Virus record (IMG/VR): IMGVR_UViG_3300042997_001281
Location: 181,394 to 245,393 of that record
Reading direction: 5' to 3' (one strand)
DNA length: 64,000 nt
DNA from: a virus
Lineage: Duplodnaviria > Heunggongvirae > Uroviricota > Caudoviricetes
Shown here: piece after piece, positions 8,443 through 51,549 of the stretch
Position numbering within the stretch: the stretch's first letter is position 1
Layout of the letters: each line of letters opens with the position of its first letter
The notes under the pieces: model-generated
Told to the model about the DNA's origin: nothing
Databases searched by the model: none
The model's input: only the letters and a program-made list of their open reading frames with translations
Translations under genes and position numbers: made by a program

Positions 8443-9213
8443 ATGGCGTTATATCTAAAAAATAATGAAATCACTAGTACCGATATTACATCAACAGGAG
8501 TTTTTAAACAAAAATATAATAGAGATGGATTGATACTACATTTGGATGCAACCGATAAAGATTCATATCCTGGTAGTGGAACAACGTGGTTTGATTTAAG
8601 TCCTCTCGGAAATAATTTTGAAATAAATGCATCGGCGTTTAATTCAGCAACCGCAATTAAATATATGGACTTTAATGGTTCATATGGTTGTGCAAAAAAA
8701 CAGAGTTCGGATTTAATTGTGTCAGGTAATGTGACAATCTGTCTTTGGACTAGAGTTAAAAACAGTACTGCGGAATGGAGAACATTACTTAGGGGTTTAA
8801 GTTCAGGACAAGACCACCATGTCATTATACAATCGGGTGCATGGGACATTGGAATGTACGATAACACAAATGGAACAGGTTTTAACAATTCAGGATTTAG
8901 TCAACAGAGTTTACCGGGTTACCCATCATCGTGGGTTTTCATGGTTTGGAGATTTTTTGATACGGAGGCACCTTATTATGAATTTGGATATAACGATAGT
9001 GCGAGTTTTAAACGTGGTAGTATTAGTAGTATAAATTCAAGATTTAAACACGGATTTTGTTCCATAGGTGCATACAACAATGGTTCACAAAATGATGTTA
9101 ACAATGCAAGTCAATATTGGGGCGACATTTCAATGATTAGTCTCTACAATAGAATTTTAAATCCATATGAAATTTTAGAGAACTATAACGCTACAGTTAA
9201 TAACTATTTTTAA
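8443..9213 (+). CDS. LamG / concanavalin-A-like lectin domain protein, probably a fibre-associated adhesin
   Basis: C-terminal motif ISMISLYNRILNPYEILENY matches the LamG signature (…LYNRALSxxEI). It starts 1 nt after the fibre stop codon. Confidence 0.65.
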   Translation: MALYLKNNEITSTDITSTGVFKQKYNRDGLILHLDATDKDSYPGSGTTWFDLSPLGNNFEINASAFNSATAIKYMDFNGSYGCAKKQSSDLIVSGNVTICLWTRVKNSTAEWRTLLRGLSSGQDHHVIIQSGAWDIGMYDNTNGTGFNNSGFSQQSLPGYPSSWVFMVWRFFDTEAPYYEFGYNDSASFKRGSISSINSRFKHGFCSIGAYNNGSQNDVNNASQYWGDISMISLYNRILNPYEILENYNATVNNYF

Positions 9214-9229
9214 CTATAATTAATATAAT

Positions 9230-10018
9230 ATGTCAATAGCAATTGGAGGTAACGTATTAGGTGCGGATGATTTTAGCCCAACGGGTACAACGATACATCC
9301 ACCCGAATTAGTAACTAGAGGAATTACCTTATGGTTAGACGCGGCCAATGATTATTCTTTTAAAAATACGTCCAATTATTATGATTGTGGTTATGGGTGT
9401 CAATATTATTCATCAAATCCCGGATGTGTCAATTGTAACACAATATGGAGAGATATGAGTGGTTACGGTTACGATGCAACTATTGAATCGGGAGCACAAA
9501 TCATATATGACCAAGGTAATGGTAGTGCTAACTTTCAATCGGCATTGAGTTCTAAATGTCGAAGTCAAATTAGACCATCTGGTGCTCGAAGTTATTTTAT
9601 TTGGATTAAATATAAAAATTTAGACGGTACGGGTGGTTATTCACTTACCGGAACACAAGACGCTGCAGGTTACACGTATCTTGGTATTCAAAATGGAGGT
9701 CAGGGATATTTTTATGCTGGTGCGGGTAATAACAGTGGTTTATATAATTATACTTTTGAAACTGGAATTTGGTATTATAACGGATTTGTACTTGACTCAG
9801 GTGGTGATGTTAGATTATATGTAAATGGTGTTTTAGTTGACTCTAAAGCTGCAGTTGGAGTTGGGGGAACCCCAACCAATGAATTTTTTGTTGGTTGTGT
9901 AAATAGTAATCACTTTATGGATGCATATATTCCAATGGTTCATATATATAATCGAGCACTAACAGAATCTGAAATAACACAAAACTTTAATAACGGAAGA
10001 GTTCGTTTTAAAATATAA
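9230..10018 (+). CDS. LamG / concanavalin-A-like lectin domain protein
   Basis: VRLYVNGVLVDSKAA … MVHIYNRALTESEITQNFNNG is the LamG signature. It looks like a paralogue of the preceding gene in fold. Confidence 0.65.
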   Translation: MSIAIGGNVLGADDFSPTGTTIHPPELVTRGITLWLDAANDYSFKNTSNYYDCGYGCQYYSSNPGCVNCNTIWRDMSGYGYDATIESGAQIIYDQGNGSANFQSALSSKCRSQIRPSGARSYFIWIKYKNLDGTGGYSLTGTQDAAGYTYLGIQNGGQGYFYAGAGNNSGLYNYTFETGIWYYNGFVLDSGGDVRLYVNGVLVDSKAAVGVGGTPTNEFFVGCVNSNHFMDAYIPMVHIYNRALTESEITQNFNNGRVRFKI

Positions 10019-10025
10019 ATAAGAC

Positions 10026-11693
10026 ATGCCAGTATATTATAAAACATCGAGTAAAATAACGGGAAACGATTGGACAACGGGTTCAAGTAGTTTTGCCACA
10101 CCCCTTGGTAATTTTTCTGCCAATGAAAATGGCGATGAGAATGCAAGAGTAGTTGGTACCGACCCGTGGGGTAATTCCGCCGTTGTTTGGGAAACAAGAC
10201 CATCAGGTAATGGAAACCCCGACGGTGGATGGAACACCGATTGGTTTTATATCGACAACACAAAATTATATAGACATTCTGTTTGGGTTAAAAGAACATC
10301 CGTTAGTGCTGGTGGAACATTTTATTTAGGTACAAATGGTATTGGTCAATGTGTTATAAGACTATCCGACGGAAACGAGGAGTGTAACCCATATTGGCAT
10401 TGTGGTGGTTCGGGAGGTTTAACACAAGACCAATGGTACTTAGTTGTTGGTCATTGTTTTCCATTTGACTATCCACAAGGATTGGGTGGACACCCCGATA
10501 CTGGATTTTGGACAACAACAGGAGGAAAAGTTGGAAGTATTAATGGTTGTAATATTGGTAGTGATTGTAAATCAGGACCAAGTACATATGGATTAAATCA
10601 TAGAACTTATCTTTACTATTGCGGTGACAATACAACACGATTACAATTTTTTGACCCACGAGTTGATTTATGTGATGGTTCAGAACCAACAATACAAAAC
10701 TTATTAGATAATAACAGACAAAACAAATTAGAATCCTTAACAATAAACACTTCAGGTTCTTCATTTAAACATCATAGAGTAATTGCCACTGGTGGTGTTA
10801 TCACCGAAGTGGGTGAATGGAGAGTTCACAGATTTAATAGTAGTGGTACATTCGCAATCACATCAACTGCCGACGCTTCATTATTGGAAGTGGAATATCT
10901 TATCGTTGCCGGTGGTGGCGGTGGAGGTATGGACATGGGCGGCGGAGGAGGTGGCGGAGGTGTCTTATCGGGACGAACCGTTTTAAATCAAACCACTTAT
11001 ACCATAACAGTTGGGGCTGGTGGTGCGGGAGCACCTGCAGCAAATACACCGGGACAACCACAATTTCATCAATTTCAAATAGGTGCATCCCAAGGTGATA
11101 GTTCATCTGCATTAGGGTTAACATCCACAGGTGGTGGATTTGGAGCAAGTTCATATTATGGTTATACCCCTAACTACGGTACACCAGGTAATGGTGGTTC
11201 GGGAGGGGCACCAAGTGGATATAGTGATGGAAATATAAGAAGTGGAGGTACAGGAATATCGGGTCAAGGATTTAATGGTGGTCAAGGTGGTGGACAATAC
11301 TATTCAGGTGGAGGTGGAGGTGCTGGTGCAGTTGGTACCAACTCACCTTCAAGACCAAACGGTGGTTCAGGTAAATTTTCAGGTATATTAGGCCGACCAT
11401 ATTATTGGGGCGGTGGCGGAGGAGGTTCCGCTTACTCAAATGATGCGGGTGGATATGGAGGTCGTGGTGGCGGGGGTGGAGGTGCTCTTGGACAAGGTGA
11501 AGGGGGAAAAGATTCAATCATGTGGGGAGTACCCGGAGCATACGGTGCGTGTTGTTCATGGGCAAACGTTCCGGGAGGAAATGGAGGTACCAACACCGGT
11601 GGTGGCGGTGGCGGGGGTTCTCATTACAATGGAAATAACCAAGGAGGAAATGGTGGAAGTGGTATCGTAATAATTAGATATAAATACAAATAA
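10026..11693 (+). CDS. Glycine-rich structural protein with a lectin-like N-terminal domain and a long Gly-rich C-terminal region
   Basis: The N-terminal ~250 aa are a W/G/N-rich beta-type domain. From residue ~295 there are poly-G runs (GGGGGGMDMGGGGGGGG, GGGGGGSAY and others). This resembles the glycine-rich domain proteins found in phage tail modules. Confidence 0.55.
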   Translation: MPVYYKTSSKITGNDWTTGSSSFATPLGNFSANENGDENARVVGTDPWGNSAVVWETRPSGNGNPDGGWNTDWFYIDNTKLYRHSVWVKRTSVSAGGTFYLGTNGIGQCVIRLSDGNEECNPYWHCGGSGGLTQDQWYLVVGHCFPFDYPQGLGGHPDTGFWTTTGGKVGSINGCNIGSDCKSGPSTYGLNHRTYLYYCGDNTTRLQFFDPRVDLCDGSEPTIQNLLDNNRQNKLESLTINTSGSSFKHHRVIATGGVITEVGEWRVHRFNSSGTFAITSTADASLLEVEYLIVAGGGGGGMDMGGGGGGGGVLSGRTVLNQTTYTITVGAGGAGAPAANTPGQPQFHQFQIGASQGDSSSALGLTSTGGGFGASSYYGYTPNYGTPGNGGSGGAPSGYSDGNIRSGGTGISGQGFNGGQGGGQYYSGGGGGAGAVGTNSPSRPNGGSGKFSGILGRPYYWGGGGGGSAYSNDAGGYGGRGGGGGGALGQGEGGKDSIMWGVPGAYGACCSWANVPGGNGGTNTGGGGGGGSHYNGNNQGGNGGSGIVIIRYKYK

Positions 11694-13649: not shown

Positions 13650-13677
13650 AAAAAGGGGGTTTATACCCCCTTTCTTA
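13650..13677. terminator. Bidirectional rho-independent terminator between convergent genes
   Basis: AAAAAGGGGG-tttata-CCCCCTTTCTTATTT: a GGGGG/CCCCC stem flanked by an A-run and a T-run. It lies between the plus-strand gene end at 13649 and the minus-strand operon end at 13661. Confidence 0.6.
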
Positions 13678-14764
13678 TTTCTATCTTTAATGAACCTACT
13701 TGGTATTCACCCGGTTCATAATATGGAATTGATAACCTCAATTTCTGTAACGTGTAGATGTCATCATCAGTCATTGGTTGAACTTCATAAACCATCACAT
13801 CTACGATATCTGTAAGGACAAATTTCGACCTTAAATCATAACGAGTATTCTTCTGTTCATTCTCGATGTAATCCTCGGGAATTGTCCCTAAATCGATTTT
13901 ATCGAAGAACGGTTCTATCTCAAATAACCTTGCTCGACTGCGAGTGGTTAAACCCATGGTGAAAGTCTTATAAACAAATAGATTATCCTCCCAATATCTT
14001 AATTCATTGAATGATGGAATTGATATGCCCCATTTACGAACAAAGTTTCTATTTGAGTTAACCTCATACTTAAATCTATCTTTCTTGTAATCATCACTGA
14101 AACGAGAAGTCTGTGAAACAAAGTGATATGTGATTGCGCATGATGTGGTTTTTAATTTATATCCCTTCAGTTTGGTTCTGATTAAGAAGTCATCATCCTC
14201 AGCAAACGCTGGTACAAAACTAAATCCATCAAAGTAACCCACATCCTCGAATAGTTTCTTATAACCACTCATAAAGAACACACCACCATCATATATCTGA
14301 CAGTTGTTCTTATTCTCTTCAACATATGAATCAAATTCTTCCCATTTAAAATCGTGGAACGAACTACCTAAGTCCATTATCACTTTACCGGGTCTTTGGT
14401 GACCAGCAAAAATGGGTGGTTCTAAGGTCGTATAACACATCAAAGTGTCTGGTGTGAGTAATCTATTCAAATTCTCGAGAAAGTGTCTCCCAATGACCAT
14501 ATCGTTGTGAATAAGGACAAGTTTCTCCGTATCTACAATCTTAATTGCAGCATTATACGTTTCTGAGAAGGTTAACCTATCATCATCGTGAACAAATGAA
14601 AGATTATCGTCATCTAAAGACTCTAACCATTCTTTGGTACCATCTGTTGAACCCCCACTACTGATTACTAATGGTGCATCGGGATAGATTTCACGAAGTC
14701 TTTTATAACAATCCTTGGTGAGGTCTAATTTATTGAATACCGCAAGTACAAAACTAATTTCCAT
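13661..14764 (-). CDS. Glycosyltransferase family 2 (GT-A fold)
   Basis: N-terminus MEISFVLAVFNKLDLTKDCYKRL…SSGGSTDGT is a GT2 signature. It is the last gene of the minus-strand operon. Confidence 0.65.
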   Translation of the reverse strand: MEISFVLAVFNKLDLTKDCYKRLREIYPDAPLVISSGGSTDGTKEWLESLDDDNLSFVHDDDRLTFSETYNAAIKIVDTEKLVLIHNDMVIGRHFLENLNRLLTPDTLMCYTTLEPPIFAGHQRPGKVIMDLGSSFHDFKWEEFDSYVEENKNNCQIYDGGVFFMSGYKKLFEDVGYFDGFSFVPAFAEDDDFLIRTKLKGYKLKTTSCAITYHFVSQTSRFSDDYKKDRFKYEVNSNRNFVRKWGISIPSFNELRYWEDNLFVYKTFTMGLTTRSRARLFEIEPFFDKIDLGTIPEDYIENEQKNTRYDLRSKFVLTDIVDVMVYEVQPMTDDDIYTLQKLRLSIPYYEPGEYQVGSLKIEIRKGV

Positions 14765-15851
14765 CGATTTCCTTTTTAATAAAGTTTAGTGCTGATTCGA
14801 CAACCTGATGCATGTCATAGTATTTGTATTCACCAAGTCTTCCACCAAACAATACACAATCCTTAACTTTCTCCGCCTCTTCTTTATATTTTGAAAACAT
14901 TTCATTGTTCTCTTTATCGTTCACAGGATAATATGGGTCAGTTTTATCTGCCACATACTCTTGTGGGTATTCATATGTAATCCACGAGCCATTCGTTTCT
15001 AAACCCTCAAAGTGTTTATGTTCAATGATACGAGTGAATGGTACATCCACATCAGTATAGTTCATTACAGGGACACCCTGAAGGTTTGGTGAACTATAAT
15101 ACTGGTGTTCGAAACTAACTGTTTTGTATTCTAACTTACCGTACTTGTAACCGAAGAACTTATCGATTGGTCCTGTGAATATTACTTTGTTATGTTTAGG
15201 TAAACTACCTTTAAAATAATCCACACCCAATCTAACCTCAACTCCCTCTAATAACTTTTCAAAAATCTGAGTGTAACCACCAATTGGGATACCTTGATAT
15301 TTGTCAAAGAAATAATTGTTGTCATAGGTAAAACGAACTGGTAACCTCTTAATGATTTCCTTTGGTAATTCCTTGGGGTCTTTCATCCATTGTTTATGAG
15401 TATAACCCTTAATGAGTTTTTCATAAACATCCTTACCTACAAGTTTGATTGCCTGTTCTTCTAAGTTGCTCGGTTCTTCAATATCATTTGATTGTTCTGC
15501 AATCATATCTTTCGCCTGTTGAGGTGTCTTAACTCCCCACAGTTTATTGAATGTCCACATACTAAAAGGAAGTGAATATAATTCTTCTTTGTAGTTGGCA
15601 ATCACATGGTGTCTATAGTTGTTAAACTCAGCGAATTGGTTAATCCAATCCCACACTTCTTTGTTTGATGTGTGGAAGATGTGTGCACCGTATACTTGAA
15701 CATTGATACCATCTTTATTCTCGGTGTAACAATTGCCACCGATGTGTTCTCTTGAATCAATAACTAAAACTTTTTTACCTGACTTAGTTAATTCGTGGGC
15801 ACATATGGAACCGAAGAAACCGGCACCAACTATTAGATAATCGTACTCCAT
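14754..15851 (-). CDS. glf: UDP-galactopyranose mutase
   Basis: Matches E. coli Glf closely over the whole length: MEYDYLIVGAGFFGS (FAD GxGxxG), HIGGNCYTE, YGAHIFHT, IEHKHF, GGRLGEYKYYDMHQV. Confidence 0.93.
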   Translation of the reverse strand: MEYDYLIVGAGFFGSICAHELTKSGKKVLVIDSREHIGGNCYTENKDGINVQVYGAHIFHTSNKEVWDWINQFAEFNNYRHHVIANYKEELYSLPFSMWTFNKLWGVKTPQQAKDMIAEQSNDIEEPSNLEEQAIKLVGKDVYEKLIKGYTHKQWMKDPKELPKEIIKRLPVRFTYDNNYFFDKYQGIPIGGYTQIFEKLLEGVEVRLGVDYFKGSLPKHNKVIFTGPIDKFFGYKYGKLEYKTVSFEHQYYSSPNLQGVPVMNYTDVDVPFTRIIEHKHFEGLETNGSWITYEYPQEYVADKTDPYYPVNDKENNEMFSKYKEEAEKVKDCVLFGGRLGEYKYYDMHQVVESALNFIKKEIDGN

Positions 15852-15852
15852 A

Positions 15853-16509
15853 TTAAATCTCTATTAAACCAATACCTAAAAAATTACCGTCAACACTATC
15901 ATATTGACTCATAAATTCATAGTGTTTATATTGTTCCTTAATTTCATTCCAAAACTTAACAACGCCAGGACATGCGTCACTACATATATCATGAAAAGAT
16001 ACGTATTTGGGGTTATATTGTTTACAGATTTCAAAATCTCTTTTTAACCCTTCATAACTGTGGTCACCATCAATTAAAATTAAATCAATATCTTGATTTA
16101 TTGATTCTCTTTTTAATTTTTGACTATGAGTTTGTAAGTAGTTAAAATTACCATATTTTTGGTATTCGTCAAGCATCCTTGATTGTGGCATAAAGTCACA
16201 CGCGAATCCATTAACTTCACCATTTATTTTGGTTAATATTTCCTTTGTTATAATAAACGTACCACCCCACCTACAACCAATTTCAAGATACGATTTAATT
16301 CTATATTTTGATATTTGTTTAAGATACGGAGCAAATTGATTTGGGTACTGCCAAAAACGAATACCTTCATTAAAGTGTTCAGACAATTCTGAAGGTAACT
16401 CTCTCGAATTCTCACCATTCATACCAAATGTGGGGAGAATTGTTTCTAAAACATTTAAATCGATTTCTTTGATATCAATTTCAGATATCCTTTTAAAAAT
16501 TTCTACCAT
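15853..16509 (-). CDS. Class I SAM-dependent methyltransferase, CmcI/TylF-like sugar O-methyltransferase type
   Basis: LEIGCRWGGT (motif I) and LILIDGDHSYEGL match the CmcI-family LxxIDGDHSYE motif. Confidence 0.6.
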   Translation of the reverse strand: MVEIFKRISEIDIKEIDLNVLETILPTFGMNGENSRELPSELSEHFNEGIRFWQYPNQFAPYLKQISKYRIKSYLEIGCRWGGTFIITKEILTKINGEVNGFACDFMPQSRMLDEYQKYGNFNYLQTHSQKLKRESINQDIDLILIDGDHSYEGLKRDFEICKQYNPKYVSFHDICSDACPGVVKFWNEIKEQYKHYEFMSQYDSVDGNFLGIGLIEI

Positions 16510-17261
16510 TTGTGTTTGAATAATACTTTTTTATTGTTAAAAAATACATCACCGTTTTTATCTTGGATTGTACCCTCAGGACTTGGGAAATGTAAATGAT
16601 TATGGATATGGTACGGCATTTCGATTATATTGTAATCTTCTCTTGTGCCAATCAAAAATGAAATCAACCATTGTTGTTTTGCGTAATGCGCAAACATTGG
16701 TTCAACTGACGGATACAATTCAACATAGTCACTTAGTAGTTTAGCCCAAGTTCTTTTATTCATTGCGAGAACACCGGTGTTATAGACTTTAATCTTATCC
16801 CACGGTTTGTCACTCACACCGTCAACCTTAACACCCGTTTGACCTAATCTACCCGATTCAATCATTAATGTGTCAGTTGGTGATGCATTATAACCAACAT
16901 AAACGTCACCATCTTTGAAGTTTCTGAATTGTTCTAACTCTTCGTCAGTCATGTTACGTTGAAGGATGATGTCACCGTCAGTATAGAAGATAACGTCATC
17001 ATCTTGGGTTATTGAATTGAAGTGATTGGAGTTTAAGAAATCCCCGTGTTGAACACACTTATTATTATTCAATGCCTGTACGTCTGAAATCGATAATGTT
17101 GCGATATCGATAGTTTTAAATGGTAATGATAAACCTTCCCCATCACCAACAAAAACCAAAACATTCTTATCGAAGTTTGAGTTTTTCTCAATTGATTTAA
17201 AGTATGGTCTCATCTTGGTCATATAATTTATATCGGACCCAGTTGCTAAAATTAACTTCAT
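16503..17261 (-). CDS. Putative GT-A fold glycosyltransferase (DxD)
   Basis: FYTDGDIIL is a DxD-like motif. The gene sits in the glycosyltransferase operon and is translationally coupled to its neighbours. Confidence 0.4.
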   Translation of the reverse strand: MKLILATGSDINYMTKMRPYFKSIEKNSNFDKNVLVFVGDGEGLSLPFKTIDIATLSISDVQALNNNKCVQHGDFLNSNHFNSITQDDDVIFYTDGDIILQRNMTDEELEQFRNFKDGDVYVGYNASPTDTLMIESGRLGQTGVKVDGVSDKPWDKIKVYNTGVLAMNKRTWAKLLSDYVELYPSVEPMFAHYAKQQWLISFLIGTREDYNIIEMPYHIHNHLHFPSPEGTIQDKNGDVFFNNKKVLFKHKW

Positions 17262-17887
17262 TACTTTTGAATTTTACTGTAAAAATTATTTTGTCTTTCC
17301 TGTCTCTCGATTGTTTTAGGATGAAGGATACAAAATCCCTCATCTTCAGGCATAATCGAATATTTCTTTGCCCCTATAATTTTTTCATGAACTTTACCAT
17401 ACCAGTTTAAACCTTTACGGTATAATCTACCCTGCCAATCAGGGAAGTTAATTCTACCCTGTTCATCTTGTTTCCATCCCCACTTGTTAATGTGTTCTTC
17501 GGTTATACCATCCACCGTGTTTATTCGAGGAAGTACAAACAAATCAACTTCAGGATTTGATTCAAGTATTGCCGGTAACATTTTAATTAGTTCCTCGGTA
17601 ATCATTTCATCCGCATCCAATTGTAAAATGTAATCACCACCACAGTAATCGTTTAATTTGTTTTTCCAAATAGAAAAATCATTTACGAAAACCATACCTC
17701 TCCATGTTTGAACATGTGGGAATCTATTAAATGGTAATAAGAAATCAATTACCTCATCCGACCCATTTTTTTGGTCATATAAAACTATGATTTCATCTTC
17801 AGGTCTTTTATGTTCTAAAAGAAACGGTACAAGTCTTTTGATTTCTTGTAACTCATCACAAACGGTAATTGCATAACTTATTTTCAT
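17261..17887 (-). CDS. Glycosyltransferase family 2
   Basis: MKISYAITVCDE… and LQLDADEMI (DxD) are a GT2 signature. Confidence 0.65.
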   Translation of the reverse strand: MKISYAITVCDELQEIKRLVPFLLEHKRPEDEIIVLYDQKNGSDEVIDFLLPFNRFPHVQTWRGMVFVNDFSIWKNKLNDYCGGDYILQLDADEMITEELIKMLPAILESNPEVDLFVLPRINTVDGITEEHINKWGWKQDEQGRINFPDWQGRLYRKGLNWYGKVHEKIIGAKKYSIMPEDEGFCILHPKTIERQERQNNFYSKIQK

Positions 17888-18165
17888 TGTTGTCTTTCTC
17901 TTGCGAATATTTTAAATTTTTGATTATTGGGTCCCGTAAATTCTATCGATGCGTGATTGGTGTTGTTGAGTGTTATCGTTAAATTGGATTCTTCTTGTTG
18001 TGTTGCGAAAACCGTCGGTTCACCTTCATCAAATTGAAACATCCATTCGGTTTGATTAAATGTAACTGTCGGTTGTAATGTAAATAATTGAAGGTTATGG
18101 TTCGTAAATAAAAATGAATTGTCTTCATTTTCTCTACCTAATTTAAAATTGTCAAGTAATCCCAT
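17884..18165 (-). CDS. Hypothetical protein in the glycosylation operon
   Basis: ORF whose start and stop overlap those of its neighbours. Confidence 0.4.
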   Translation of the reverse strand: MGLLDNFKLGRENEDNSFLFTNHNLQLFTLQPTVTFNQTEWMFQFDEGEPTVFATQQEESNLTITLNNTNHASIEFTGPNNQKFKIFARERQQ

Positions 18166-19412
18166 TATAGTTTTGTTAACTGAGGTATTTTTAATTTAAC
18201 TTCTTTAGGTTTAACCACATATGGTGTTATGATTGATTCAAACTTCTCGGTCATTTTTGACATCGAATATTTTTCTCTATTCTCTTCCATCAAAACTTGA
18301 GAGTTACCGTAGAACGTGTCATATTCATTTTTAACCATTCTCATAATCTCAACAACTTCACCATAGTTTGGTGTAAACCATTTTGACCCCTTGATGATAA
18401 ATGAATCAACAACACTCTCATGAACATCAGTCAATGAACCACCTAACATTACTGCCTTATCCATTGGTAAGAAGTCTTTATGTCCCGACCAATTAGATGC
18501 AAGAATAGGTTTACCTGTCATTGAGAACTCAAGTAGAGGTCTACCGAATCCTTCGCCTTTTGTTAAGGTTACCATTGCCTTCACTTTTGGGTGATTGTAT
18601 AACTCATTCATTTCCTTGTCTGTTAACTCACCGAATAAAAGATAGATTGGCGGTGGGTTTTCAATTCCCTTAACCAAATCAGAAATTTTCTTCTTAAAGT
18701 TTTCTCTTTCTTTTATCGAAAAAGATGCTGAAGATGTTTTAAGAATTAATGCGGGTTGTTCTTCCGAATCCTTAAATGCCTCAGAGAAACACTTAATTAA
18801 CATACCAACATCTTTTCTATCCTGACCTAAATTACCTTTTAACCAGTGACCAACAAAAAGATAAGAAAAATCTTCGTTAATTCCAACATCTAACCCTGAA
18901 AATTTATCATTATAAATTTCAGTGTCAACACCCTCAAAAAGAACCTCAACAGGTTTCTCAATTTTATGTTGTTTAATTAGTTTACCGGTTAGGTTATCAG
19001 TTTCATTGTAAACGGTTTGAAGTAGTACTTCCTTGGAGAAGGTTGAAGTTGTGATGATTAAATCCATTCTGTTACAACCATCAATCCATTCCTTTGATGC
19101 CATTGTTGTTTCAATACCGGCAGTTATACCGATACTGAACCTACCAATCTTTTGGAATTCATTTGGTACTGTAACCTGAACATAAACATCGGGAGTTGCG
19201 GGTATCACTTTAACGATATGCGCAAGTATCCACTTATTATATTCGGTATCCTCTTGTAATGCCGTTTTTGGTGTTGAACCCCAATGACACGAATCCACCC
19301 TTATTTCAAATAAGTCCATGTCACGAAGAGACCTCAATAAATCTCTCGAGTGTGCTCCATACCCACTTAATGTTTCAACGGGTCCTCTAAATAATAAAAA
19401 AGGTTTACTCAT
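18165..19412 (-). CDS. Glycosyltransferase family 1/4 (GT-B fold)
   Basis: GEGFGRPLLEFSMTGKPILASNWSGHKDF is the EX7E motif region of GT4-type enzymes. Confidence 0.7.
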   Translation of the reverse strand: MSKPFLLFRGPVETLSGYGAHSRDLLRSLRDMDLFEIRVDSCHWGSTPKTALQEDTEYNKWILAHIVKVIPATPDVYVQVTVPNEFQKIGRFSIGITAGIETTMASKEWIDGCNRMDLIITTSTFSKEVLLQTVYNETDNLTGKLIKQHKIEKPVEVLFEGVDTEIYNDKFSGLDVGINEDFSYLFVGHWLKGNLGQDRKDVGMLIKCFSEAFKDSEEQPALILKTSSASFSIKERENFKKKISDLVKGIENPPPIYLLFGELTDKEMNELYNHPKVKAMVTLTKGEGFGRPLLEFSMTGKPILASNWSGHKDFLPMDKAVMLGGSLTDVHESVVDSFIIKGSKWFTPNYGEVVEIMRMVKNEYDTFYGNSQVLMEENREKYSMSKMTEKFESIITPYVVKPKEVKLKIPQLTKL

Positions 19413-20767
19413 ACTATACGATATAATTCAAATTTCTTTTTAGGTTTATAGTTTTTGAAAGTTGTTTCAATTCCATCAATTAATGAATCACACATCACTT
19501 TACTTGATAGGTTTTCGATTGCCCATTCTCTACCTTTTAATCCTCGTTCTTTTCTTCCTTCTTTACCCCAACCATAAACTTCAGAAATTGCACCGGCAAC
19601 ATCATTATTGTTTACTCTGTCTTCATAAATGAAAGGAGTTGGGACCGAACCATTTAGATTGTTAACGGATGGCCAAACGGGTACAACCCATTCACCATGT
19701 AAAGTTGAACCGTGTTTCTTTCTATTGTGGAGTGAACCGAATGTTATGTAATTGTCTGCGGTGTAATCAAAACCACATTGGTCTTGTAATCCACCTGTGA
19801 CATTAACAATGATTGGTGTGCCAGCCATTATACTTTCGGCGGTACCCAAACCAAAACCTTCGTTGTTCGCAATGTTAATTGTACAGTCAACAATATTATA
19901 CAACTCATTCAATTTATTCTGTTCCAATTTTAAGTTAACAAACTTAATATTATAGTCGGGACAAACACTTTTAGCCACCGCCGGTAGGTCGGTACCATTC
20001 TCATCGATTGGTGTGGTGTGCATTAACAATAAACATTTATCGGATTGTTCTTTAGGTAAAGAATCACAGAATAATTTATATGATAATATCACATCACCCG
20101 GTTGTTTTCTTTTGATGTTACGATTGTTATAGAATAGAATAAAATCATATTCTTTATCTTCGTAAATGTATTTCTTTAAATCATCAGCAACACTATCTGT
20201 TGGTTTGAACACATCTGAATTAATACCGTGAGGAACATAACTGATTTGCCAATCCTCCAAAGGTTTGAAGGTTGGTTCGTTATCCATTTTACCCACTCTA
20301 TGGACTAAACCATATGTTTGTTTGGAGATACAACCAATCCAATCACAACTTTCATAATTGTTTCTATTATAGGTTGGGTCAGGTAGGTTATCCCACACGT
20401 GGTAATATAGAATTGGAATTTGTTGTCTAATCTCATGTTCCGCCTCGTACAACCATTGCCAGTAATGTGGGTCGGTGAAGTGTAATATTGCGTCAGGTTT
20501 CTCAGACTCAATAAGAGACCTCAATGTAAAAATATTACCATATCCATTACTTGGAATGATTTTAAGGTTTGCATCAAGTACTCTTGTCTTCTCCCTAATG
20601 TCCGCATTTATATCTACAATTTTACCTGCCTCAGGATGGTTGATTGCACTACCCAACTGTACCCAATCGTACTTGTGAATAGTACCCATTACCAATTCTT
20701 TTGACATAGTAGCAACACCCGATGTCATTCTTAAATCATCAGATAATAATAGAATCTTTTTCTTCAT
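19409..20767 (-). CDS. Glycosyltransferase family 1/4 (GT-B fold)
   Basis: NNEGFGLGTAESIMAGTPIIVNVTGGLQDQ is a GT4 C-terminal signature. Confidence 0.7.
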   Translation of the reverse strand: MKKKILLLSDDLRMTSGVATMSKELVMGTIHKYDWVQLGSAINHPEAGKIVDINADIREKTRVLDANLKIIPSNGYGNIFTLRSLIESEKPDAILHFTDPHYWQWLYEAEHEIRQQIPILYYHVWDNLPDPTYNRNNYESCDWIGCISKQTYGLVHRVGKMDNEPTFKPLEDWQISYVPHGINSDVFKPTDSVADDLKKYIYEDKEYDFILFYNNRNIKRKQPGDVILSYKLFCDSLPKEQSDKCLLLMHTTPIDENGTDLPAVAKSVCPDYNIKFVNLKLEQNKLNELYNIVDCTINIANNEGFGLGTAESIMAGTPIIVNVTGGLQDQCGFDYTADNYITFGSLHNRKKHGSTLHGEWVVPVWPSVNNLNGSVPTPFIYEDRVNNNDVAGAISEVYGWGKEGRKERGLKGREWAIENLSSKVMCDSLIDGIETTFKNYKPKKKFELYRIV

Positions 20768-21316: not shown

Positions 21317-22174
21317 ATGGAATCGAATAAAATTTATAACGGAGATTGTGTTGAACTATTCAAAGAATTGGGTGATAACACAATAGATTTAGTGGTCACA
21401 TCACCACCATATAATGTTGGTATCGCATATGATACACATATAGACGATGTACCTATGGGTGATTACTTTGAGTGGTGTAGAACTTGGTTATCTGAAGTTT
21501 ACAGAACATTAAAGGACGATGGTCGTGTTGCGATTAACATACCTTATGAAGTAAACGTAAGGGAACGTGGCGGTCGTGTATTCATCGTATCTGAATACTG
21601 GCAGATAATGAAAGAGATTGGATTCGGTTTCTTTGGTGTTGTCGATTTAGAGGAAGATTCTCCACACCGTTCTAAAACAACTGCGTGGGGTTCGTGGATG
21701 TCACCGTCAGCACCGTACATATATAATCCAAAAGAATGTGTTATTCTTGCATATAAGAAAGACTACAAGAAGAAAGATAAAGGTATCTCAACGTGGTCAT
21801 ATACTGAAGCACAAGTTGACGTTGAGGTGGAAGAAGGTGAAGACCCCAAAACAAGAACTAAACGAATCTATTCTGATAAAGATAAGAATGAGTTTATGGA
21901 GTTGGTGTTCGGTCAGTGGAAATACTTCAACGATACGAAGTCATTAACTAAGGCAACCTTCTCAATGGATATTCCGGTTAAGGCAATTAAAATCCTTTCA
22001 TTTAAAAATGATTTGGTATTGGATTGTTTCTCAGGTTCGGGAACCACGGCACTTGCGGCAAAGAAATTGGGTAGAAACTATATCGGATTTGAACTATCTG
22101 AAAAGTACACCGAGATTTCTCGTCAGAGAATCAATCAGTTTGATTATAATTTGTTCCCCGAATACGAAGGTTAA
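21317..22174 (+). CDS. DNA methyltransferase, beta-class N4-cytosine or N6-adenine
   Basis: DLVVTSPPY (motif IV) precedes DLVLDCFSGSGTTALAA (motif I FxGxG). The IV-then-I order defines the beta class. SPPY favours N4-C, but N6-A is not excluded. Confidence 0.85.
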   Translation: MESNKIYNGDCVELFKELGDNTIDLVVTSPPYNVGIAYDTHIDDVPMGDYFEWCRTWLSEVYRTLKDDGRVAINIPYEVNVRERGGRVFIVSEYWQIMKEIGFGFFGVVDLEEDSPHRSKTTAWGSWMSPSAPYIYNPKECVILAYKKDYKKKDKGISTWSYTEAQVDVEVEEGEDPKTRTKRIYSDKDKNEFMELVFGQWKYFNDTKSLTKATFSMDIPVKAIKILSFKNDLVLDCFSGSGTTALAAKKLGRNYIGFELSEKYTEISRQRINQFDYNLFPEYEG

Positions 22175-22533
22175 CGAACGGGGTTCACAGGTGCACCTAA
22201 GTACATGGCAACCCTATCACCCACTTTAAAGTTATTAGCGGTTCCCGTTGGAAATTCAATGACATGGTCCCCGATACCGGTGTATCTCGGTGGATTAAGT
22301 TTATTTCCGGCGGGTTCGCAGTTTTTATGGATATGTGAAATTCTATTCTTATTCACGAATACAATGTCCAATGGTATGTAACAGTTCTTCATCCAAAACG
22401 AATGGTGACCCATTCCCATCTTGAAGACTATACAACCCTCAAGGGTGTCTCTACCCATCATTCCCTTCATTATTTCCTCGGGAGTCGACAGATATTCCGC
22501 CACGTACTGTTTATCGTTAATTATTACTGACAT
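22171..22533 (-). CDS. DUF192 (COG1430) family protein
   Basis: GMMGRD…GCIVFKMGMGHHSFWMKNCYIPLDIVFVNKN…GDHVIEFPTG…GDRV matches the DUF192 consensus (GLMxR…GMLF…FWMKNTxIPLDIIF…YVLE…GD). Confidence 0.65.
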   Translation of the reverse strand: MSVIINDKQYVAEYLSTPEEIMKGMMGRDTLEGCIVFKMGMGHHSFWMKNCYIPLDIVFVNKNRISHIHKNCEPAGNKLNPPRYTGIGDHVIEFPTGTANNFKVGDRVAMYLGAPVNPVR

Positions 22534-22582: not shown

Positions 22583-22789
22583 ATGAGTACACTTTTTAAC
22601 GGGGACTTTGAATATGAAGAGGAATCGGACTTTAAAGAATTCCTTGAAACTATTGAACCTGAAAACGCATTAAAACTTATCGATATCGCACTTACCCATG
22701 CGAACAAAGAAGGTGCGTTCACAATCGAAGAATCATATTGCATTTACAAATGCATAGATAAATTAAAAAAACAACAGAATGAAAATTAA
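22583..22789 (+). CDS. Hypothetical acidic protein
   Basis: ATG at 22583. The listed ORF begins at an upstream TTG. Confidence 0.45.
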   Translation: MSTLFNGDFEYEEESDFKEFLETIEPENALKLIDIALTHANKEGAFTIEESYCIYKCIDKLKKQQNEN

Positions 22790-23909
22790 ATTTGAGTACG
22801 TTTGGTTGGATGGATATTCACCCGAACCAAATCTTAGAAGTAAAATTAAAGTCGTTGACTATAACGGCGAGTTAACCATTGATGACATCTCTAACTGGGG
22901 ATTCGATGGAAGTTCAACAATGCAGGCGGAGGGTAACTTCTCCGATTGTTACTTAAAACCTGTTAGGTTTTATAAAAACAATAACAGTAAAGATGATTAC
23001 CCAACAGTTTATGTGTTGTGTGAAGTACTTGACGGAAACAATGAGATTCACCCATCAAATTACCGAGCAAAAGTTGGGGAAGAAGATACCGATTTTTGGG
23101 TTGGATTTGAACAAGAATATTTTATTCGTTCAGGACATAACCAACCTGTATTGGGTTTTGAAAATGGTGGGATGATTGACCCACAAGGAAAATACTATTG
23201 CGGTGTTGGTGGTCATGTTGTTGGTAGACTTATTAGTGATGAACATTTAGATATGTGTTTAAACTATGGTATCAATCTTGAAGGAACAAACGCAGAAGTT
23301 GCATTGGGTCAATGGGAATATCAAATCTTTGCTAAAGGTAAACTTAAAGGTGCTGATGACTTATGGATGTCTCGTTACTTCTTAAATAAAATTTCTGAAA
23401 GATATTCGGTGGCAATTGAGTTACACCCTAAACCAATTACGACAGGTGAATGGAATGGTTCAGGTTTACATGCCAATTTCTCAAACCAAAAAATGAGAGA
23501 GACAGGTGGGGAAGAATACTTCAACGCAATCTTTAAAACATTTGAAAGTAGGACAAAAATTCATATTGAAAATTATGGTTCCGATAATCATTTAAGATTA
23601 ACGGGTAAATTTGAAACACAATCAATTGATAAATTCAGTTGGGGTGTATCTGATAGAGGTGCATCAATTAGGGTTCCAAAAACCGTCGGAGAAACGTGGA
23701 GGGGTTATCTTGAAGATAGACGACCCGGTTCAAACGCTGACCCTTACAGAATCTTAACTGTTATTTGTAAATCACTATCATTAGCAGATGAGTTAAAAAA
23801 TACATTACATGTAATGTACGCTGAAATTAAAACCGATGACTTGTCAACAAAATACGGAACACTTTCAAACGATGAATTATTTGAAGAGTATAAAAAAGAC
23901 GAAGAATAA
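22779..23909 (+). CDS. Glutamine synthetase type II (eukaryote-type GS)
   Basis: Aligns colinearly with GSII: FEYVWLDG, WGFDGSSTMQAEGNFSDCYL, GFEQEY, GKYYCGVG, GTNAEVALGQWEYQI, KPITTGEWNGSGLHANFS, RLTG…ASIRVP…RGYLEDRRPGSNADPY. Confidence 0.9.
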   Translation: MKIKFEYVWLDGYSPEPNLRSKIKVVDYNGELTIDDISNWGFDGSSTMQAEGNFSDCYLKPVRFYKNNNSKDDYPTVYVLCEVLDGNNEIHPSNYRAKVGEEDTDFWVGFEQEYFIRSGHNQPVLGFENGGMIDPQGKYYCGVGGHVVGRLISDEHLDMCLNYGINLEGTNAEVALGQWEYQIFAKGKLKGADDLWMSRYFLNKISERYSVAIELHPKPITTGEWNGSGLHANFSNQKMRETGGEEYFNAIFKTFESRTKIHIENYGSDNHLRLTGKFETQSIDKFSWGVSDRGASIRVPKTVGETWRGYLEDRRPGSNADPYRILTVICKSLSLADELKNTLHVMYAEIKTDDLSTKYGTLSNDELFEEYKKDEE

Positions 23910-23913: not shown

Positions 23914-24276
23914 ATGGGTAAGGTATTTTTAATCGATATCGACGGAACAATCTGTGATGACATCAAAAACGAAGACAGTCATTTATATGTAACCGCAAAT
24001 CATTTCCCAAACGCATTGGATATAATCAATAAATGGTATGATGAAGGTCATATCATTACCTTCTTTACTGCAAGAGAAAGTAAAGACAGAGAAGTTACCG
24101 AAACGTGGTTAAAAGAAAAAGGTTTTAAATACCATGGATTGGTTATGGACAAACCAAGAATCAAAGACGGACAAGAGTATGTGTGGATTGATAACAGGAA
24201 AGTTAGGGCAATCACATATCTTGGAACATGGTCAGAATTAAAAGAAGTAGATGCCAAAATACAAACATTTGAATGA
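23914..24276 (+). CDS. HAD-superfamily hydrolase, small phosphatase or nucleotidase
   Basis: MGKVFLIDIDGTICDD carries HAD motif I (DxDGT). ATG at 23914. The listed ORF has an upstream extension that overlaps the GS gene. Confidence 0.5.
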   Translation: MGKVFLIDIDGTICDDIKNEDSHLYVTANHFPNALDIINKWYDEGHIITFFTARESKDREVTETWLKEKGFKYHGLVMDKPRIKDGQEYVWIDNRKVRAITYLGTWSELKEVDAKIQTFE

Positions 24277-25565
24277 TGAATAACATAGATAAACAATATC
24301 AATTACTCCTACAAGACATTCTTGATAATGGAGTTAAGAAAGAAACAAGAAATGGTGGTACCATTTCAGTATTTGGTAGACAAATACGTCATAAAATGAG
24401 TGAAGGGTTTCCTTTACTTACAACCAAGAAGATGGCTTGGAAAACTATTGTAACTGAATTATTATGGTTCTTACGTGGTGATACAAACATTAAATATTTA
24501 GTTGATAACAATTGTCACATTTGGAATGGTGATGCTTACCAAGCCTATATTAAAAGATATAATAAAGGTGAATATGTTGGTAAAACCAAATTATTAGAGA
24601 ATTCTAAGAAAAATAGAACATTAACTGAACCATTTACAATAGAAGAATTTATTGACAAAATCAAAACCGATGATGAGTTTGCTAAGAAATGGGGTGAGTT
24701 AGGTCCAATATATGGTAAACAATGGAGAAGTTGGGAAACCGAGGATGAATATCTCGATGGGGTATCATATTTCAAATACCCACCAATAGACCAAATCCAA
24801 AATCTAATCAACGACCTTAAAACAAATCCAGACTCAAGACGATTAATGGTTAGTGCTTGGAATGTGGGGGAGTTGGATAAAATGACTTTACCTCCTTGTC
24901 ATTATGGATTTCAAGTTTATACAAGAGAGTTGAGTTTGAATGATAGAGTATTAGAATTTACAAAAAGAGATTTAGACCCTTCTGAGTTTAGAAGAGGTGG
25001 TAATTATGGGACAGTAATTCCTGAAGAAAGGACATTAGAAGTTCTAAACAATCATAATATCCCAACAAGAGCAATCTCATTAATGTGGAATCAACGTTCA
25101 GTAGATACATTCTTAGGTTTACCATTCAACATTGCATCTTATGGATTGTTATTGGAAATAATTGCTAAAACTGTTAATATGGTACCTGATGAGTTGATTG
25201 GTAATTTAGGTGATGTACATTTGTATTCAAATCATATTGAACAGGCTAAAGAACAGATTGGAAGAAAATACACTCACGAAGAGAGAACAGAATTGTTAAA
25301 GACCGCAATGGGTGATTTTTATAAAACAGCGGTTGATGAACAAGTACCATTCGGTGGTGGTTTAAGTGAGTATTATAATTCTTACAAAATACCAAATCAC
25401 ACAAGAGAACCATTTAAATTACCCACATTAAAAATCAATTCAGGTAATGAAAATTGGCATTTATTAACCGTAGATGAGGTTATTAATACTTTAGATGTGG
25501 ATATCACTTTTAAAACGGATAATTACCAATCGCATTCAACAATTAAGGCGCCCTTGTCCAATTGA
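24273..25565 (+). CDS. thyA: Thymidylate synthase ThyA family, dUMP-specific, with three insertions
   Basis: Colinear with E. coli ThyA: R..GT.S.FG.Q.R, GFPLLTTKK, ELLWFLRGDTN, GPIYGKQWR, DQIQNLINDLKTNPDSRR, VSAWNVGELDKMTLPPCH, RSVDTFLGLPFNIASY with the Asn retained, GDVHLYSNH and C-terminal IKAPL. It carries about 50-aa, 50-aa and 40-aa insertions relative to the 264-aa enzyme. Confidence 0.88.
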   Translation: MMNNIDKQYQLLLQDILDNGVKKETRNGGTISVFGRQIRHKMSEGFPLLTTKKMAWKTIVTELLWFLRGDTNIKYLVDNNCHIWNGDAYQAYIKRYNKGEYVGKTKLLENSKKNRTLTEPFTIEEFIDKIKTDDEFAKKWGELGPIYGKQWRSWETEDEYLDGVSYFKYPPIDQIQNLINDLKTNPDSRRLMVSAWNVGELDKMTLPPCHYGFQVYTRELSLNDRVLEFTKRDLDPSEFRRGGNYGTVIPEERTLEVLNNHNIPTRAISLMWNQRSVDTFLGLPFNIASYGLLLEIIAKTVNMVPDELIGNLGDVHLYSNHIEQAKEQIGRKYTHEERTELLKTAMGDFYKTAVDEQVPFGGGLSEYYNSYKIPNHTREPFKLPTLKINSGNENWHLLTVDEVINTLDVDITFKTDNYQSHSTIKAPLSN

Positions 25566-25636: not shown

Positions 25637-26299
25637 ATGGCAGTTGTTTATTTACACAAAAAGAAAAATACTAATGAAGTTTTTTATGTTGGGATTGGCC
25701 TTTATGAAGAAAGAGCTTATTCTTATAGAAATAGAAACATACATTGGAAAAACGTTGTTGCTAAATATGGATATGATGTTGAAATTATTGAATCGGATAT
25801 TGAATGGGAAGGTGCATGTGATACTGAAAAATATTTAATTCAAAAATATGGTAGAGATACATTGACAAATATGACAGATGGCGGTGAGGGGTTATTCAAT
25901 CCATCAGATGAAGTTAGAGAAAAGTTAAGATACCCAAAAACAGAAGAGCATAAACAAAAATTAAGAGAGTATCAAATTGGGGTAACGCAATCTGAAGAAA
26001 CAATACAAAAAAGAATATCACATGGATTTCATAAATCTGATGAGTATAGATATAAAATGAGTATTGCATTATCAGGTGATAATAATCCAATGAAAAAAGA
26101 AGAGAATAGAGAAAAATTAAGGAAACCAAAACCACCAAGAACAAAAGAACATAGTAAAAAAATAAGTGAAACCAAAAAGGGAAAACCTACATGGAACAAA
26201 GGTAAAACTTTAGAAAAATTTGTTTGTGATATTTGTAGCAAACAAATTGGTGGGTATGGTAATCTATTACAACACAAAAAGAAACATTTATCAAATTAG
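25637..26299 (+). CDS. GIY-YIG homing endonuclease with NUMOD3-like repeats
   Basis: VVYLHKKKNTNEVFYVGIG…R…HWKN is a GIY-YIG motif. It has a basic C-terminal region with repeated …E(E/T)xxKxS/R… helices. It is free-standing immediately downstream of thyA. Confidence 0.8.
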   Translation: MAVVYLHKKKNTNEVFYVGIGLYEERAYSYRNRNIHWKNVVAKYGYDVEIIESDIEWEGACDTEKYLIQKYGRDTLTNMTDGGEGLFNPSDEVREKLRYPKTEEHKQKLREYQIGVTQSEETIQKRISHGFHKSDEYRYKMSIALSGDNNPMKKEENREKLRKPKPPRTKEHSKKISETKKGKPTWNKGKTLEKFVCDICSKQIGGYGNLLQHKKKHLSN

Positions 26300-26764: not shown

Positions 26765-27006
26765 TGTTTATCCACATCACACCTGACGAATTTGTAGAAG
26801 AGTTTAGAGAATCTTGGAAATTGGGGTACATATCCCAACCTTCAATAGATTATGCAACAAACGCAATCCATGTTTGGTTTGAGGGTAGAGATTGTATTTT
26901 ATTTAATTTTAAGGATTATGGTTGGTTTAATGATAACCGATTCAATACATATAGTATGTCATCGGGACCCGCAGGGATAACGATACAAATAACAAAAACT
27001 AGATAA
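26764..27006 (+). CDS. Hypothetical protein
   Basis: ORF of 80 aa. Confidence 0.45.
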   Translation: MFIHITPDEFVEEFRESWKLGYISQPSIDYATNAIHVWFEGRDCILFNFKDYGWFNDNRFNTYSMSSGPAGITIQITKTR

Positions 27007-27545
27007 TGAAACTAATGGATATTATTAATGAAGAAAACAAACCAAAGTACGAATTTGGTTGTGCAATGTTGTACTTCGCATTTCCTGAAATGAAGTACAT
27101 CCACGGTATGATTGACCCTAACGATGTTTACACCGAAGAAGAAGATGGTTCATTCGGATTGGAGACAGAACCACATACCACATTACTATATGGTTTACAC
27201 GATGGTGTATCCATTGATGATGTAAAAAATGTATTGAATAAACACACATACCCATCATGTAAAGTACATAACCCGTCATTGTTTAAGAACAAACAATATG
27301 ATGTATTAAAGTTCGATGTTGAGGGTGACAGTCTTCATGATGCAAATGGTGAATTGAGAGGGTATCCACACACAAACGATTATCCTGATTACCACCCACA
27401 TTTAACCGTGGCATATCTTAAACCGGGAACGGGTAATAAGTACATTAGGAAGATGATAGGTTTAAATTACGAACTAACACCACAACATGCGGTGTATTCA
27501 CAACCAAACGGAGAAAAAACAAAGATAAAGATAAACGTAGACTAA
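27006..27545 (+). CDS. 2H phosphoesterase superfamily protein (LigT/ThpR/Acb1-like)
   Basis: Two H-x-T/S-x motifs, HTTLLYG and HLTVAYL, spaced about 85 aa apart in a 179-aa protein. This is the 2H fold signature. Confidence 0.6.
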   Translation: MKLMDIINEENKPKYEFGCAMLYFAFPEMKYIHGMIDPNDVYTEEEDGSFGLETEPHTTLLYGLHDGVSIDDVKNVLNKHTYPSCKVHNPSLFKNKQYDVLKFDVEGDSLHDANGELRGYPHTNDYPDYHPHLTVAYLKPGTGNKYIRKMIGLNYELTPQHAVYSQPNGEKTKIKINVD

Positions 27546-27550: not shown

Positions 27551-27880
27551 ATGGAGAGTAGCATTAAGAAGGGTGGAATTAAATTAAATAAAATAATAAA
27601 GGAATATAAGAGCGCAACCACACATGAAATTTGGGAAGGTATCCGTGATAACTTCACCTTTGGATTCATTGGGGCAACTTTAGTAGTATTCATTTCAACA
27701 CGAACCGACATTGCGGTTTTGTTTGGTTATATCATATACTATTACTTTATGGGTACAATTGTTAACAGACCAAAGTATGTGACCGATTTGGGTAAAATGA
27801 TTGTATTTCCAATACCATCCGCTCTCGGTGCATTTGCCGGTTATAAACTATCTTATATCCTACTACAGATGATAAGTTAA
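27551..27880 (+). CDS. Small membrane protein
   Basis: Two or three hydrophobic segments. Confidence 0.45.
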   Translation: MESSIKKGGIKLNKIIKEYKSATTHEIWEGIRDNFTFGFIGATLVVFISTRTDIAVLFGYIIYYYFMGTIVNRPKYVTDLGKMIVFPIPSALGAFAGYKLSYILLQMIS

Positions 27881-28179
27881 TGTACAGACCATTACCAAAA
27901 AACGTAACAATTAGAAACAGTGATATAGACGGATTAGGTCTATTCGCAACAGAAAACATTCTCAAACATCATGTGTTTGGAATCACCCACATTAGAGATG
28001 ATGAGTTTGAAAATGGGTATAGTAGAACACCACTTGGTGGGTTCTTTAATCATTCGGAAACACCCAATTGTGAGGTGTATGAAGAAGGTAGATTTATAAT
28101 GATTAGGGCAATTAAAGACATAGTCCCCAATGAGGAGATTACTGCGTTTTACACGCTTTATGTTCCAAAAAGAGAGTAA
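27880..28179 (+). CDS. SET-domain protein lysine methyltransferase-like (99 aa)
   Basis: DIDGLGLFA (GxG), FFNHSETPNCEV (NHSCxPN motif) and NEEITAFY (ELTxDY-like). The minimal SET architecture resembles viral vSET. Confidence 0.75.
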   Translation: MYRPLPKNVTIRNSDIDGLGLFATENILKHHVFGITHIRDDEFENGYSRTPLGGFFNHSETPNCEVYEEGRFIMIRAIKDIVPNEEITAFYTLYVPKRE

Positions 28180-44327: not shown

Positions 44328-44534
44328 ATGGGAAAATACATCATCGTAAAAAAAATGGTTTCTAACAAGTTCCACGGAGACGGGGAACCTCACTACATCA
44401 ACATCATTATGAATGATTCACTAGGTGAAGTTGAAGAGTTTGAGTCAGAAGAAGAGGTAAACAAAATGGTCGAGTTATTGAATGCCAATACCGACTCAGG
44501 TCACACTTATTTCGTCAGAAAAATTGTTGATTAA
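44328..44534 (+). CDS. Small hypothetical protein
   Basis: ORF of 68 aa. Confidence 0.4.
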   Translation: MGKYIIVKKMVSNKFHGDGEPHYINIIMNDSLGEVEEFESEEEVNKMVELLNANTDSGHTYFVRKIVD

Positions 44535-51545: not shown

Positions 51546-51549
51546 AAAT

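Follow-up and report, generated by a model that had tools for sequence, protein, structure and literature searches.

Why would a tailed phage encode its own glutamine synthetase (GS), and would the protein act as a classical GS or as a related ligase with a different substrate? This question is raised by a 64,000-nucleotide stretch of DNA (hereafter the window) from the IMG/VR record IMGVR_UViG_3300042997_001281 (positions 181,394 to 245,393), in which the open reading frame (ORF) 22779-23909 encodes a GS. The window belongs to a tailed phage, with tail-fibre and virion structural PHROG matches and with relatives on IMG/VR viral contigs. A preliminary description made from the sequence had assigned the ORF to the eukaryote-type GS class (GSII) and had offered two roles for it, a classical GS supporting nitrogen assimilation for nucleotide synthesis, or an amide ligase resembling GS that would act in a modification pathway alongside the aminotransferase and decarboxylase genes of the phage. 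Our analysis identified a GSII with an intact active site, which is under purifying selection and has its affinity with the bacterial GlnII enzymes. We consider it likely (probability about 0.75) that the protein is an active classical GS, which would be expressed by the phage and would sustain the glutamine needed to make nucleotides and amino sugars as a very large genome is replicated in nitrogen-poor water.

Family assignment and active site of the phage GS

A GSII combines an N-terminal β-grasp domain with a C-terminal catalytic domain in a short chain of approximately 330-380 amino acids and resembles its own class more than GSI or GSIII. The phage ORF showed both this domain architecture and this class similarity. 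It matched the Pfam families Gln-synt_N (amino acids 6-85) with 36 bits (cut-off 33.4) and Gln-synt_C with 58 bits (cut-off 24), and its residues 1-332 were aligned with positions 1-327 of the 333 positions of the NCBIfam GlnII profile (E-value 1.9e-95, 319.8 bits). Of the other NCBIfam classes, GSI gave 42 bits and GSIII 28 bits. The best 16 sequence matches in the PDB were all GSII with end-to-end alignments, including the enzymes from yeast (3fky, E-value 2.8e-83), Streptomyces (4bax, 3.9e-79) and human (2ojw, 3.5e-72). An AlphaFold2 monomer model (predicted local distance difference test score 72, predicted template modelling score 0.76) had 4bax and 3fky as its top Foldseek matches in the PDB. 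The family match exceeds chance by far and extends over both domains, and the phage-encoded GSII of the preliminary description, including its unambiguous alignment over the β-grasp and catalytic domains, was confirmed by the profile and structure matches.

The active site was analyzed in an alignment that comprised, besides the phage GS, the enzymes of human, yeast and Streptomyces, 79 cellular GSII and 199 distinct homologues closely related to the query. The sequence used for human GS is 100% identical to PDB 8dnu_A over residues 1-373. All functional positions checked (25/25, comprising the metal, ATP, glutamate and ammonium sites) are identical to human GS and invariant in the 199 relatives. 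The metal ligands are E111, E113, E173, E180, H231 and E312 (human E134, E136, E196, E203, H253 and E338), and both the ATP/phosphate contacts (W107, N233, S235, R240, R298, Y310 and R314) and the glutamate contacts (N226, G227, R273 and R293) are kept. The ammonium pocket, which separates true GS from amine ligases, is represented by D43, S46, Y140 and the E279 flap (human D63′, S66′, Y162 and E305) and is also invariant. The GS ATP signature is present as KPITTGEWNGSGLHANFS at amino acids 218-235, and its PROSITE-type pattern matched 200/200 clade members. The N-terminal GS signature, FDGSS-x(6,8)-[DENQSTAK]-[SA]-[DE], is represented in the phage GS by FDGSSTMQAEGNFSD, mismatched only at F54, a variable non-catalytic position; 97 of the 200 clade members have Ser there and fit the pattern. 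Only five positions conserved in cellular GSII carry clade-specific conserved substitutions, all of them conservative (I/T, R/K, M/L, Y/W and I/V).

The ratio of nonsynonymous to synonymous substitution rates (dN/dS, ω; Nei-Gojobori method) of the GS core was 0.08-0.16 between the window gene and its relatives, with a median of 0.17 over 898 pairs. The phage GS is therefore under purifying selection, and the 25 intact functional positions together with an ω of ~0.1-0.17 rule out a pseudogene or an inactive copy. Substitution of Mn/Mg- or ATP-binding residues and a recent pseudogenised copy were the two results that the preliminary description had named as fatal to its proposal. Neither was found, because the ligand residues are intact and the gene is under purifying selection, and a classical GS is consistent with every sequence test performed.

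The ammonium pocket also bears on the second proposed role, a GS-like amide ligase which, with the aminotransferase and an S-adenosylmethionine (AdoMet) decarboxylase homologue as partners in a phage modification pathway, would glutamylate some amine besides ammonia, for instance a polyamine, amino sugar or modified base. In PuuA, GlnA3, NpaA1 and AtdA1, which are organic-amine γ-glutamyl ligases related to GSI, the catalytic Asp50′ and the Glu-flap residue are no longer present, and conversion of ammonium has not been reported for any known enzyme of this kind (PMC11335346). These GoaS proteins (also including IpuA) belong to the same superfamily as the phage GS and share its ATP-dependent γ-glutamyl phosphate chemistry, but they are GSI-like. 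When compared with the hallmarks of amine ligases (a GSI-like scaffold with an enlarged amine pocket, from which Asp50′ and the Glu flap have been lost), the phage enzyme has a GSII scaffold and retains both residues as D43 and E279, which are invariant in the phage GSII together with S46 and Y140. The γ-glutamylputrescine synthetase model (GGputSyn) gave 16.8 bits against a cut-off of 650, and the neighbouring thymidylate synthase ThyA is a canonical one and not a hydroxymethylase. A class I/II aminotransferase (49318-50583, plus strand), an AdoMet_dc homologue (54848-55252, minus strand) and many glycosyltransferases are indeed encoded in the window, and in the unrelated huge phage L163 an ORF with distant similarity to aminotransferases is located some 3-4 kb from the GS of that phage. 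However, the aminotransferase and decarboxylase of the window are located 26 and 31 kb from GS, and in none of 80 clade loci was either of them encoded less than 10 kb from GS, so a pathway shared by the three proteins was dropped. Both genes named in the preliminary description do exist, but the connection to GS drawn there is not supported. Since the phage enzyme keeps the ammonium-pocket Asp and the Glu flap, an amide ligase is unlikely, with only a slight chance of being the right description.

The AdoMet decarboxylase homologue is a protein of 134 amino acids (PF02675, E-value 2e-10) encoded on the strand opposite to its neighbours. The aminotransferase is the first gene of a plus-strand run of three (49318-53449), followed by a GT47/RXYLT1-like glycosyltransferase (50623-51504) and a 2-oxoglutarate (2OG)-Fe(II) oxygenase (52577-53449), and this run, which is unlinked to GS, may represent a separate modification or metabolic module. 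In L163, a polyA-polymerase-like ORF is also found near GS, 3-5 kb away together with the aminotransferase-like ORF.

Distribution and bacterial affinity of the phage clade

Homologues of the phage GS were searched in a large protein collection, in IMG/VR and in 185,579 prokaryotic species represented by one genome each. The large protein collection contained hundreds of clusters with at least 70% identity over 100% of the query, on contigs of up to 321 kb, and IMG/VR contained 120 relatives (58-87% identity) on viral contigs of up to 288 kb. Among the species representatives, the best match had 61% identity and no cellular genome contained a closer relative; the remaining matches (50-56% identity) came from Planctomycetota, Bacteroidota, Verrucomicrobiota, Gammaproteobacteria, Acidobacteriota and others. 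The 61% match (L003, SHWW01000027.1) is located on a contig binned as the metagenome-assembled genome (MAG) "Flavobacteriaceae MAG Baikal-deep-G76". Its GS is devoid of the C-terminal tail described below and falls inside the phage clade in a neighbour-joining (NJ) tree, and it is surrounded by ORFans and by ORFs with CbbQ_C and ART-PolyVal matches. Such a neighbourhood looks like that of a mobile element rather than of a bacterial chromosome. The contig thus probably stems from a phage or mobile element and was mis-binned, and it was not retained as a sign of a Flavobacteriaceae donor or host.

This nominally cellular match is the observation that could favour either a decaying or inactive passenger gene of recent host origin or the misidentification of a cellular contig as a phage. 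We give these explanations almost no credence, given an ω far below 1, the invariant catalytic residues, the synteny of GS on many contigs of up to 288 kb, the tail-fibre and virion genes of the window, the mobile-element character of the L003 neighbourhood, and the 61% ceiling on identity among the species representatives.

The phage GS shares 40% identity with the human, 43% with the yeast and 46% with the Streptomyces enzyme, but 52-57% with bacterial GlnII proteins from Pirellula, Saprospiraceae and Zunongwangia. In the NJ tree (82 taxa, 310 columns, 100 bootstraps), the phage GS clade is monophyletic (99/100 bootstraps) and nested inside the bacterial GSII radiation, far from the human and yeast enzymes, with no specific donor lineage or phylum resolved among the 82 taxa. 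The identities and the tree rule out a eukaryotic origin of the phage GS and point to bacterial GlnII ancestry. The label "eukaryote-type" is correct as the historical name of the GSII class, but it is merely a class label and not an origin, because the clade nests among bacterial GlnII and not among eukaryotic GS.

The bacterial GlnII enzymes (e.g. Streptomyces coelicolor, PDB 4BAX) resemble the phage GS in having two domains, an N-terminus starting at the first β-strand and fully identical catalytic and ligand residues, and they provided the best Foldseek match. The phage clade differs from them in forming a separate, well-supported branch, in its C-terminal extension of 35-100 amino acids and in its lower bit scores with the GlnII model. 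Eukaryotic GSII (human GLUL, yeast Gln1 and maize GS1a) share the fold and, at all positions checked, the active-site residues of the phage GS, and yeast 3fky gave the lowest E-value of all PDB sequence matches. In contrast to the phage protein, they contain an N-terminal segment of ~20 residues, so that the alignment starts at human residue 25, and they are only 40-43% identical to it and distant in the NJ tree.

The GS proteins of three deposited huge phages (LR756501, LR745206 and LR756502, designated L163-L165; 635-735 kb) occupy two other positions in the tree and have no tail. Since these copies branch in two places outside the present clade, the tree suggests that phages have acquired GSII independently at least three times. 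A search for nucleotide-level relatives of the window among deposited phages found none.

The C-terminal tail and the gene neighbourhood

The tail is the sole unusual feature of this GS and the new detail. The 79 distinct cellular GSII comprise 331-352 amino acids, with C-termini no more than a few residues away from query position 333-338, and none of them has a tail, whereas nearly all viral GS homologues have 370-437 amino acids. Over the clade the extension contains the conserved motif L.LA.EL..TLH.MY....T..L..KYG.LS..ELL.EY..DEE, and some lineages carry a further block of ~25 residues. Its composition is acidic (12 D/E versus 5 K/R in 44 amino acids), and a median ω of 0.25 indicates purifying selection. 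In the predicted monomer model, the last GS helix is prolonged to approximately residue 347 and followed by two short low-confidence helices. Two clade members, L003 and L151, are without the tail, the latter with a genuine stop codon.

These properties raise the possibility of an active GS whose tail adds a second, phage-specific property, such as docking, altered assembly or autoregulation, so that its value would not lie simply in more GS activity. In such a case, the tail would turn an ordinary GSII into a phage-adapted enzyme through docking to a partner from the phage or host or through changed ring stacking or filaments, and candidate partners might be a nitrogen-regulatory protein or a nucleotide-synthesis complex. 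The conservation, acidity and purifying selection of the tail and its absence from all cellular GSII analyzed are in line with this proposal, as is the low-confidence helical prediction for the monomer, such as one would expect if the segment became folded upon binding. However, a profile hidden Markov model (HMM) of the tail matched only GS ORFs among the ORFs of the window and 80 viral loci (all other E-values >2.9), which excludes a docking tag common to other phage proteins, and no partner was identified. In addition, the tail is dispensable in at least two genomes of the clade and could be a simple stabilizing extension. We therefore regard a second function of the tail as doubtful, although less remote than the amide ligase.

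The features of the GS locus are listed in Table 1. Four of these genes, the small ORF, GS, the HAD-family phosphatase and ThyA, form a tight same-strand string with 4-nt spacing or overlaps. Of 49 related loci, 10 contain a homologue of the small ORF at the corresponding position, and this ORF is probably co-translated with GS. The adjacent ThyA is a canonical thymidylate synthase producing dTMP, since its top 60 PDB matches are all thymidylate synthases and its PCH, RSxD, PFNIASY and GDxHLY motifs are aligned; the same observations ruled out a hydroxymethylase in a base-hypermodification module. Across the 49 distinct loci, ThyA was found close to GS in 7 and the HAD phosphatase in 5, in near relatives only, and GS-HAD-ThyA was consequently dropped as a conserved module. 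The most persistent neighbour of GS is the N6/N4 DNA methyltransferase (within 10 kb in 36/49 distinct loci, or 64/80 by tblastn), followed by the DUF192 protein (28/49 distinct loci), both without an evident functional link to GS.

Table 1. Features of the phage GS gene and its immediate neighbours (window coordinates)
Feature	Position	Strand	Details
N6/N4 DNA methyltransferase	21317..22174	+	PF01555, E-value 7e-38
DUF192 protein	22171..22533	-	Divergent from the GS string; PF02643, E-value 1.6e-17
Small acidic ORF	22583..22789	+	68 aa from ATG 22583; overlaps GS start by 11 nt; no Pfam match
GSII gene	22779..23909	+	376 aa plus stop, ATG at 22779; Pfam, NCBIfam and PDB matches
N-terminal β-grasp domain, aa 6-85	22794..23033	+	PF03951, 36 bits (cut-off 33.4); contains D43 and S46
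Catalytic domain, aa 99-335	23073..23783	+	PF00120; metal ligands, ATP signature (aa 218-235), E279, R273, R293, R298, R314
Acidic C-terminal tail of the phage clade, aa 336-376	23784..23906	+	Absent from 79 cellular GSII; motif KYG.LS..ELL.EY..DEE
HAD-family phosphatase	23914..24276	+	Pfam LNS2, Acid_phosphat_B and HAD_PNKP; likely start MGKVFLIDIDGT, 4 nt past GS stop (start reassigned from sequence)
Thymidylate synthase ThyA	24273..25565	+	PF00303, E-value 1.8e-86; overlaps HAD stop codon; two large insertions

ThyA has 430 amino acids owing to insertions at approximately amino acids 224-268 and 334-405 relative to solved thymidylate synthase structures, and it is directly followed by a NUMOD3 homing-endonuclease-like gene (25637-26299, plus strand). 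Upstream of the methyltransferase, a glycan cluster on the minus strand (13661-20767) encodes a GT2 glycosyltransferase, the UDP-galactopyranose mutase Glf (E-value 1e-73), a methyltransferase, another GT2 and two GT1-like proteins. The related phage L001 (1-7568) contains a different gene set in the same slot (Epimerase_2, Methyltransf_21 and Glyco_tranf_2_5), so the cluster looks like a variable cassette beside a conserved methyltransferase-DUF192-GS block.

The structural part of the window includes a giant ORF of 2759 amino acids (162-8441, plus strand), for which short matches to tail-fibre PHROGs were obtained, and after it homologues of virion structural proteins (8443-11693); the window also carries endolysin-like genes. 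Other proteins encoded on the plus strand include a 2H-phosphoesterase/Acb1-like protein (27006-27545), which scored 25.7 bits with the PF23474 family directed against the cyclic oligonucleotide-based antiphage signalling system (CBASS), just under the cut-off of 27, and which is kept in the close relative L084 (60% identity). A SET-domain protein of 99 amino acids (27880-28179; PF00856, E-value 4e-11) is a candidate minimal SET-type lysine methyltransferase. Further downstream are a stand-alone DnaA C-terminal helix-turn-helix protein (44534-44932), an MGS-like domain protein (45410-45787), a 4HBT thioesterase (45799-46212) and a polyA-polymerase/CCA-adding head-domain protein (47262-47996). 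No tRNA genes were found in the window. The Bacteroidota -7 promoter motif TAnnTTTG was not enriched in it (93 versus 91 ± 10), and sigma-70 promoter and terminator scans were at background level; the inference of a host from promoters was therefore dropped.

Proposed role of the phage GS

If the established mechanism of GS is applied to the residues conserved here, two or three Mg/Mn ions would be held by E111, E113, E173, E180, H231 and E312, and the γ-carboxylate of glutamate would be phosphorylated by ATP. Ammonium would be bound in a pocket lined by Y140, the E279 flap and, from the adjacent subunit, D43 and S46, and D43 would deprotonate it for the attack on γ-glutamyl phosphate, yielding glutamine, ADP and Pi. 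The phage GS probably assembles into the usual GSII decamer of two pentameric rings. The synthesis of purines, pyrimidines and amino sugars draws its amide nitrogen from glutamine, and the phage enzyme would keep glutamine available for these pathways during infection, when a genome of 200-300 kb has to be replicated in nitrogen-poor water. As a GSII, the enzyme may escape the controls that act on a host GSI or GSIII. Glutamine supply is the most likely role because GS is located in a tight string with the HAD phosphatase and thymidylate synthase, and a link of GS to nucleotide metabolism in this phage is suggestive.

Several observations weigh against a classical GS in this role. The adjacency of GS and ThyA was found in only 7/36 loci with at least 3 kb downstream, all in close relatives, and family scans of the window proteins found no glutamine amidotransferase, so a role in nucleotide supply would rest on host enzymes. 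A classical GS leaves the conserved tail unexplained, and no biochemical or genetic test of any phage GS was found in the literature searched. Finally, the 319.8 bits of the phage GS are below the cut-off of 500 of the NCBIfam GlnII equivalog NF041605. In a calibration of this model, Streptomyces GlnII gave 662 bits, whereas human GS (425) and the GSII from Zunongwangia (402), Halieaceae (394) and Pirellula (380) all scored below 500. The activity of human GS has been verified experimentally. The cut-off is accordingly narrow, since human GS and bacterial GSII of three phyla likewise miss it, and the missed cut-off was dropped as evidence against GS function. Nevertheless, the phage clade (320-341 bits) scores lower than the calibrated cellular GSII (380-662 bits).

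GS genes in huge aquatic phages were already described in 2025. They are encoded in 9/25 moraphage jumbo phages (PMC12619734), and the Huge Phage Genome Collection contains 248 GS genes in 247 huge phages, 215 of them freshwater or marine (bioRxiv 10.1101/2025.02.27.640493). The authors of both reports regarded GS as a nitrogen-related auxiliary metabolic gene and speculated on a similar role in nitrogen supply (PMC12619734; bioRxiv 10.1101/2025.02.27.640493). The moraphages, a lineage with predicted Bacteroidota hosts (PMC12619734), have in common with the present phage an aquatic origin, large contigs, many glycosyltransferases and GS, a likeness of shared traits alone; the moraphage markers TerL, MCP and PolB were not found in the window. 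In Lake Erie, viral genes included GS along with AdoMet decarboxylase, 2OG-Fe(II) oxygenase and calcineurin-like phosphoesterase (PMC12542629), and the latter three all occur in the window as well. The earlier reports of GS in huge phages were limited to annotation, without the GS type, catalytic residues, origin or phylogeny, or the tail. The phage GS described here is largely an ordinary auxiliary metabolic gene, to which our analysis adds a clade that appears catalytically intact by sequence, its bacterial GlnII ancestry, the suggestion of at least three independent acquisitions by phages, and a conserved tail.

If a strongly conserved GS is widespread in phages, nitrogen assimilation in infected cells would be re-routed by large phages of freshwater and marine habitats, a matter of relevance to the nitrogen cycle of waters in which nitrogen is limiting. 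The conserved tail provides a concrete handle on the phage-specific adaptation of a core metabolic enzyme, and if it does confer a second property, the phage would gain control of glutamine flux in addition to capacity.

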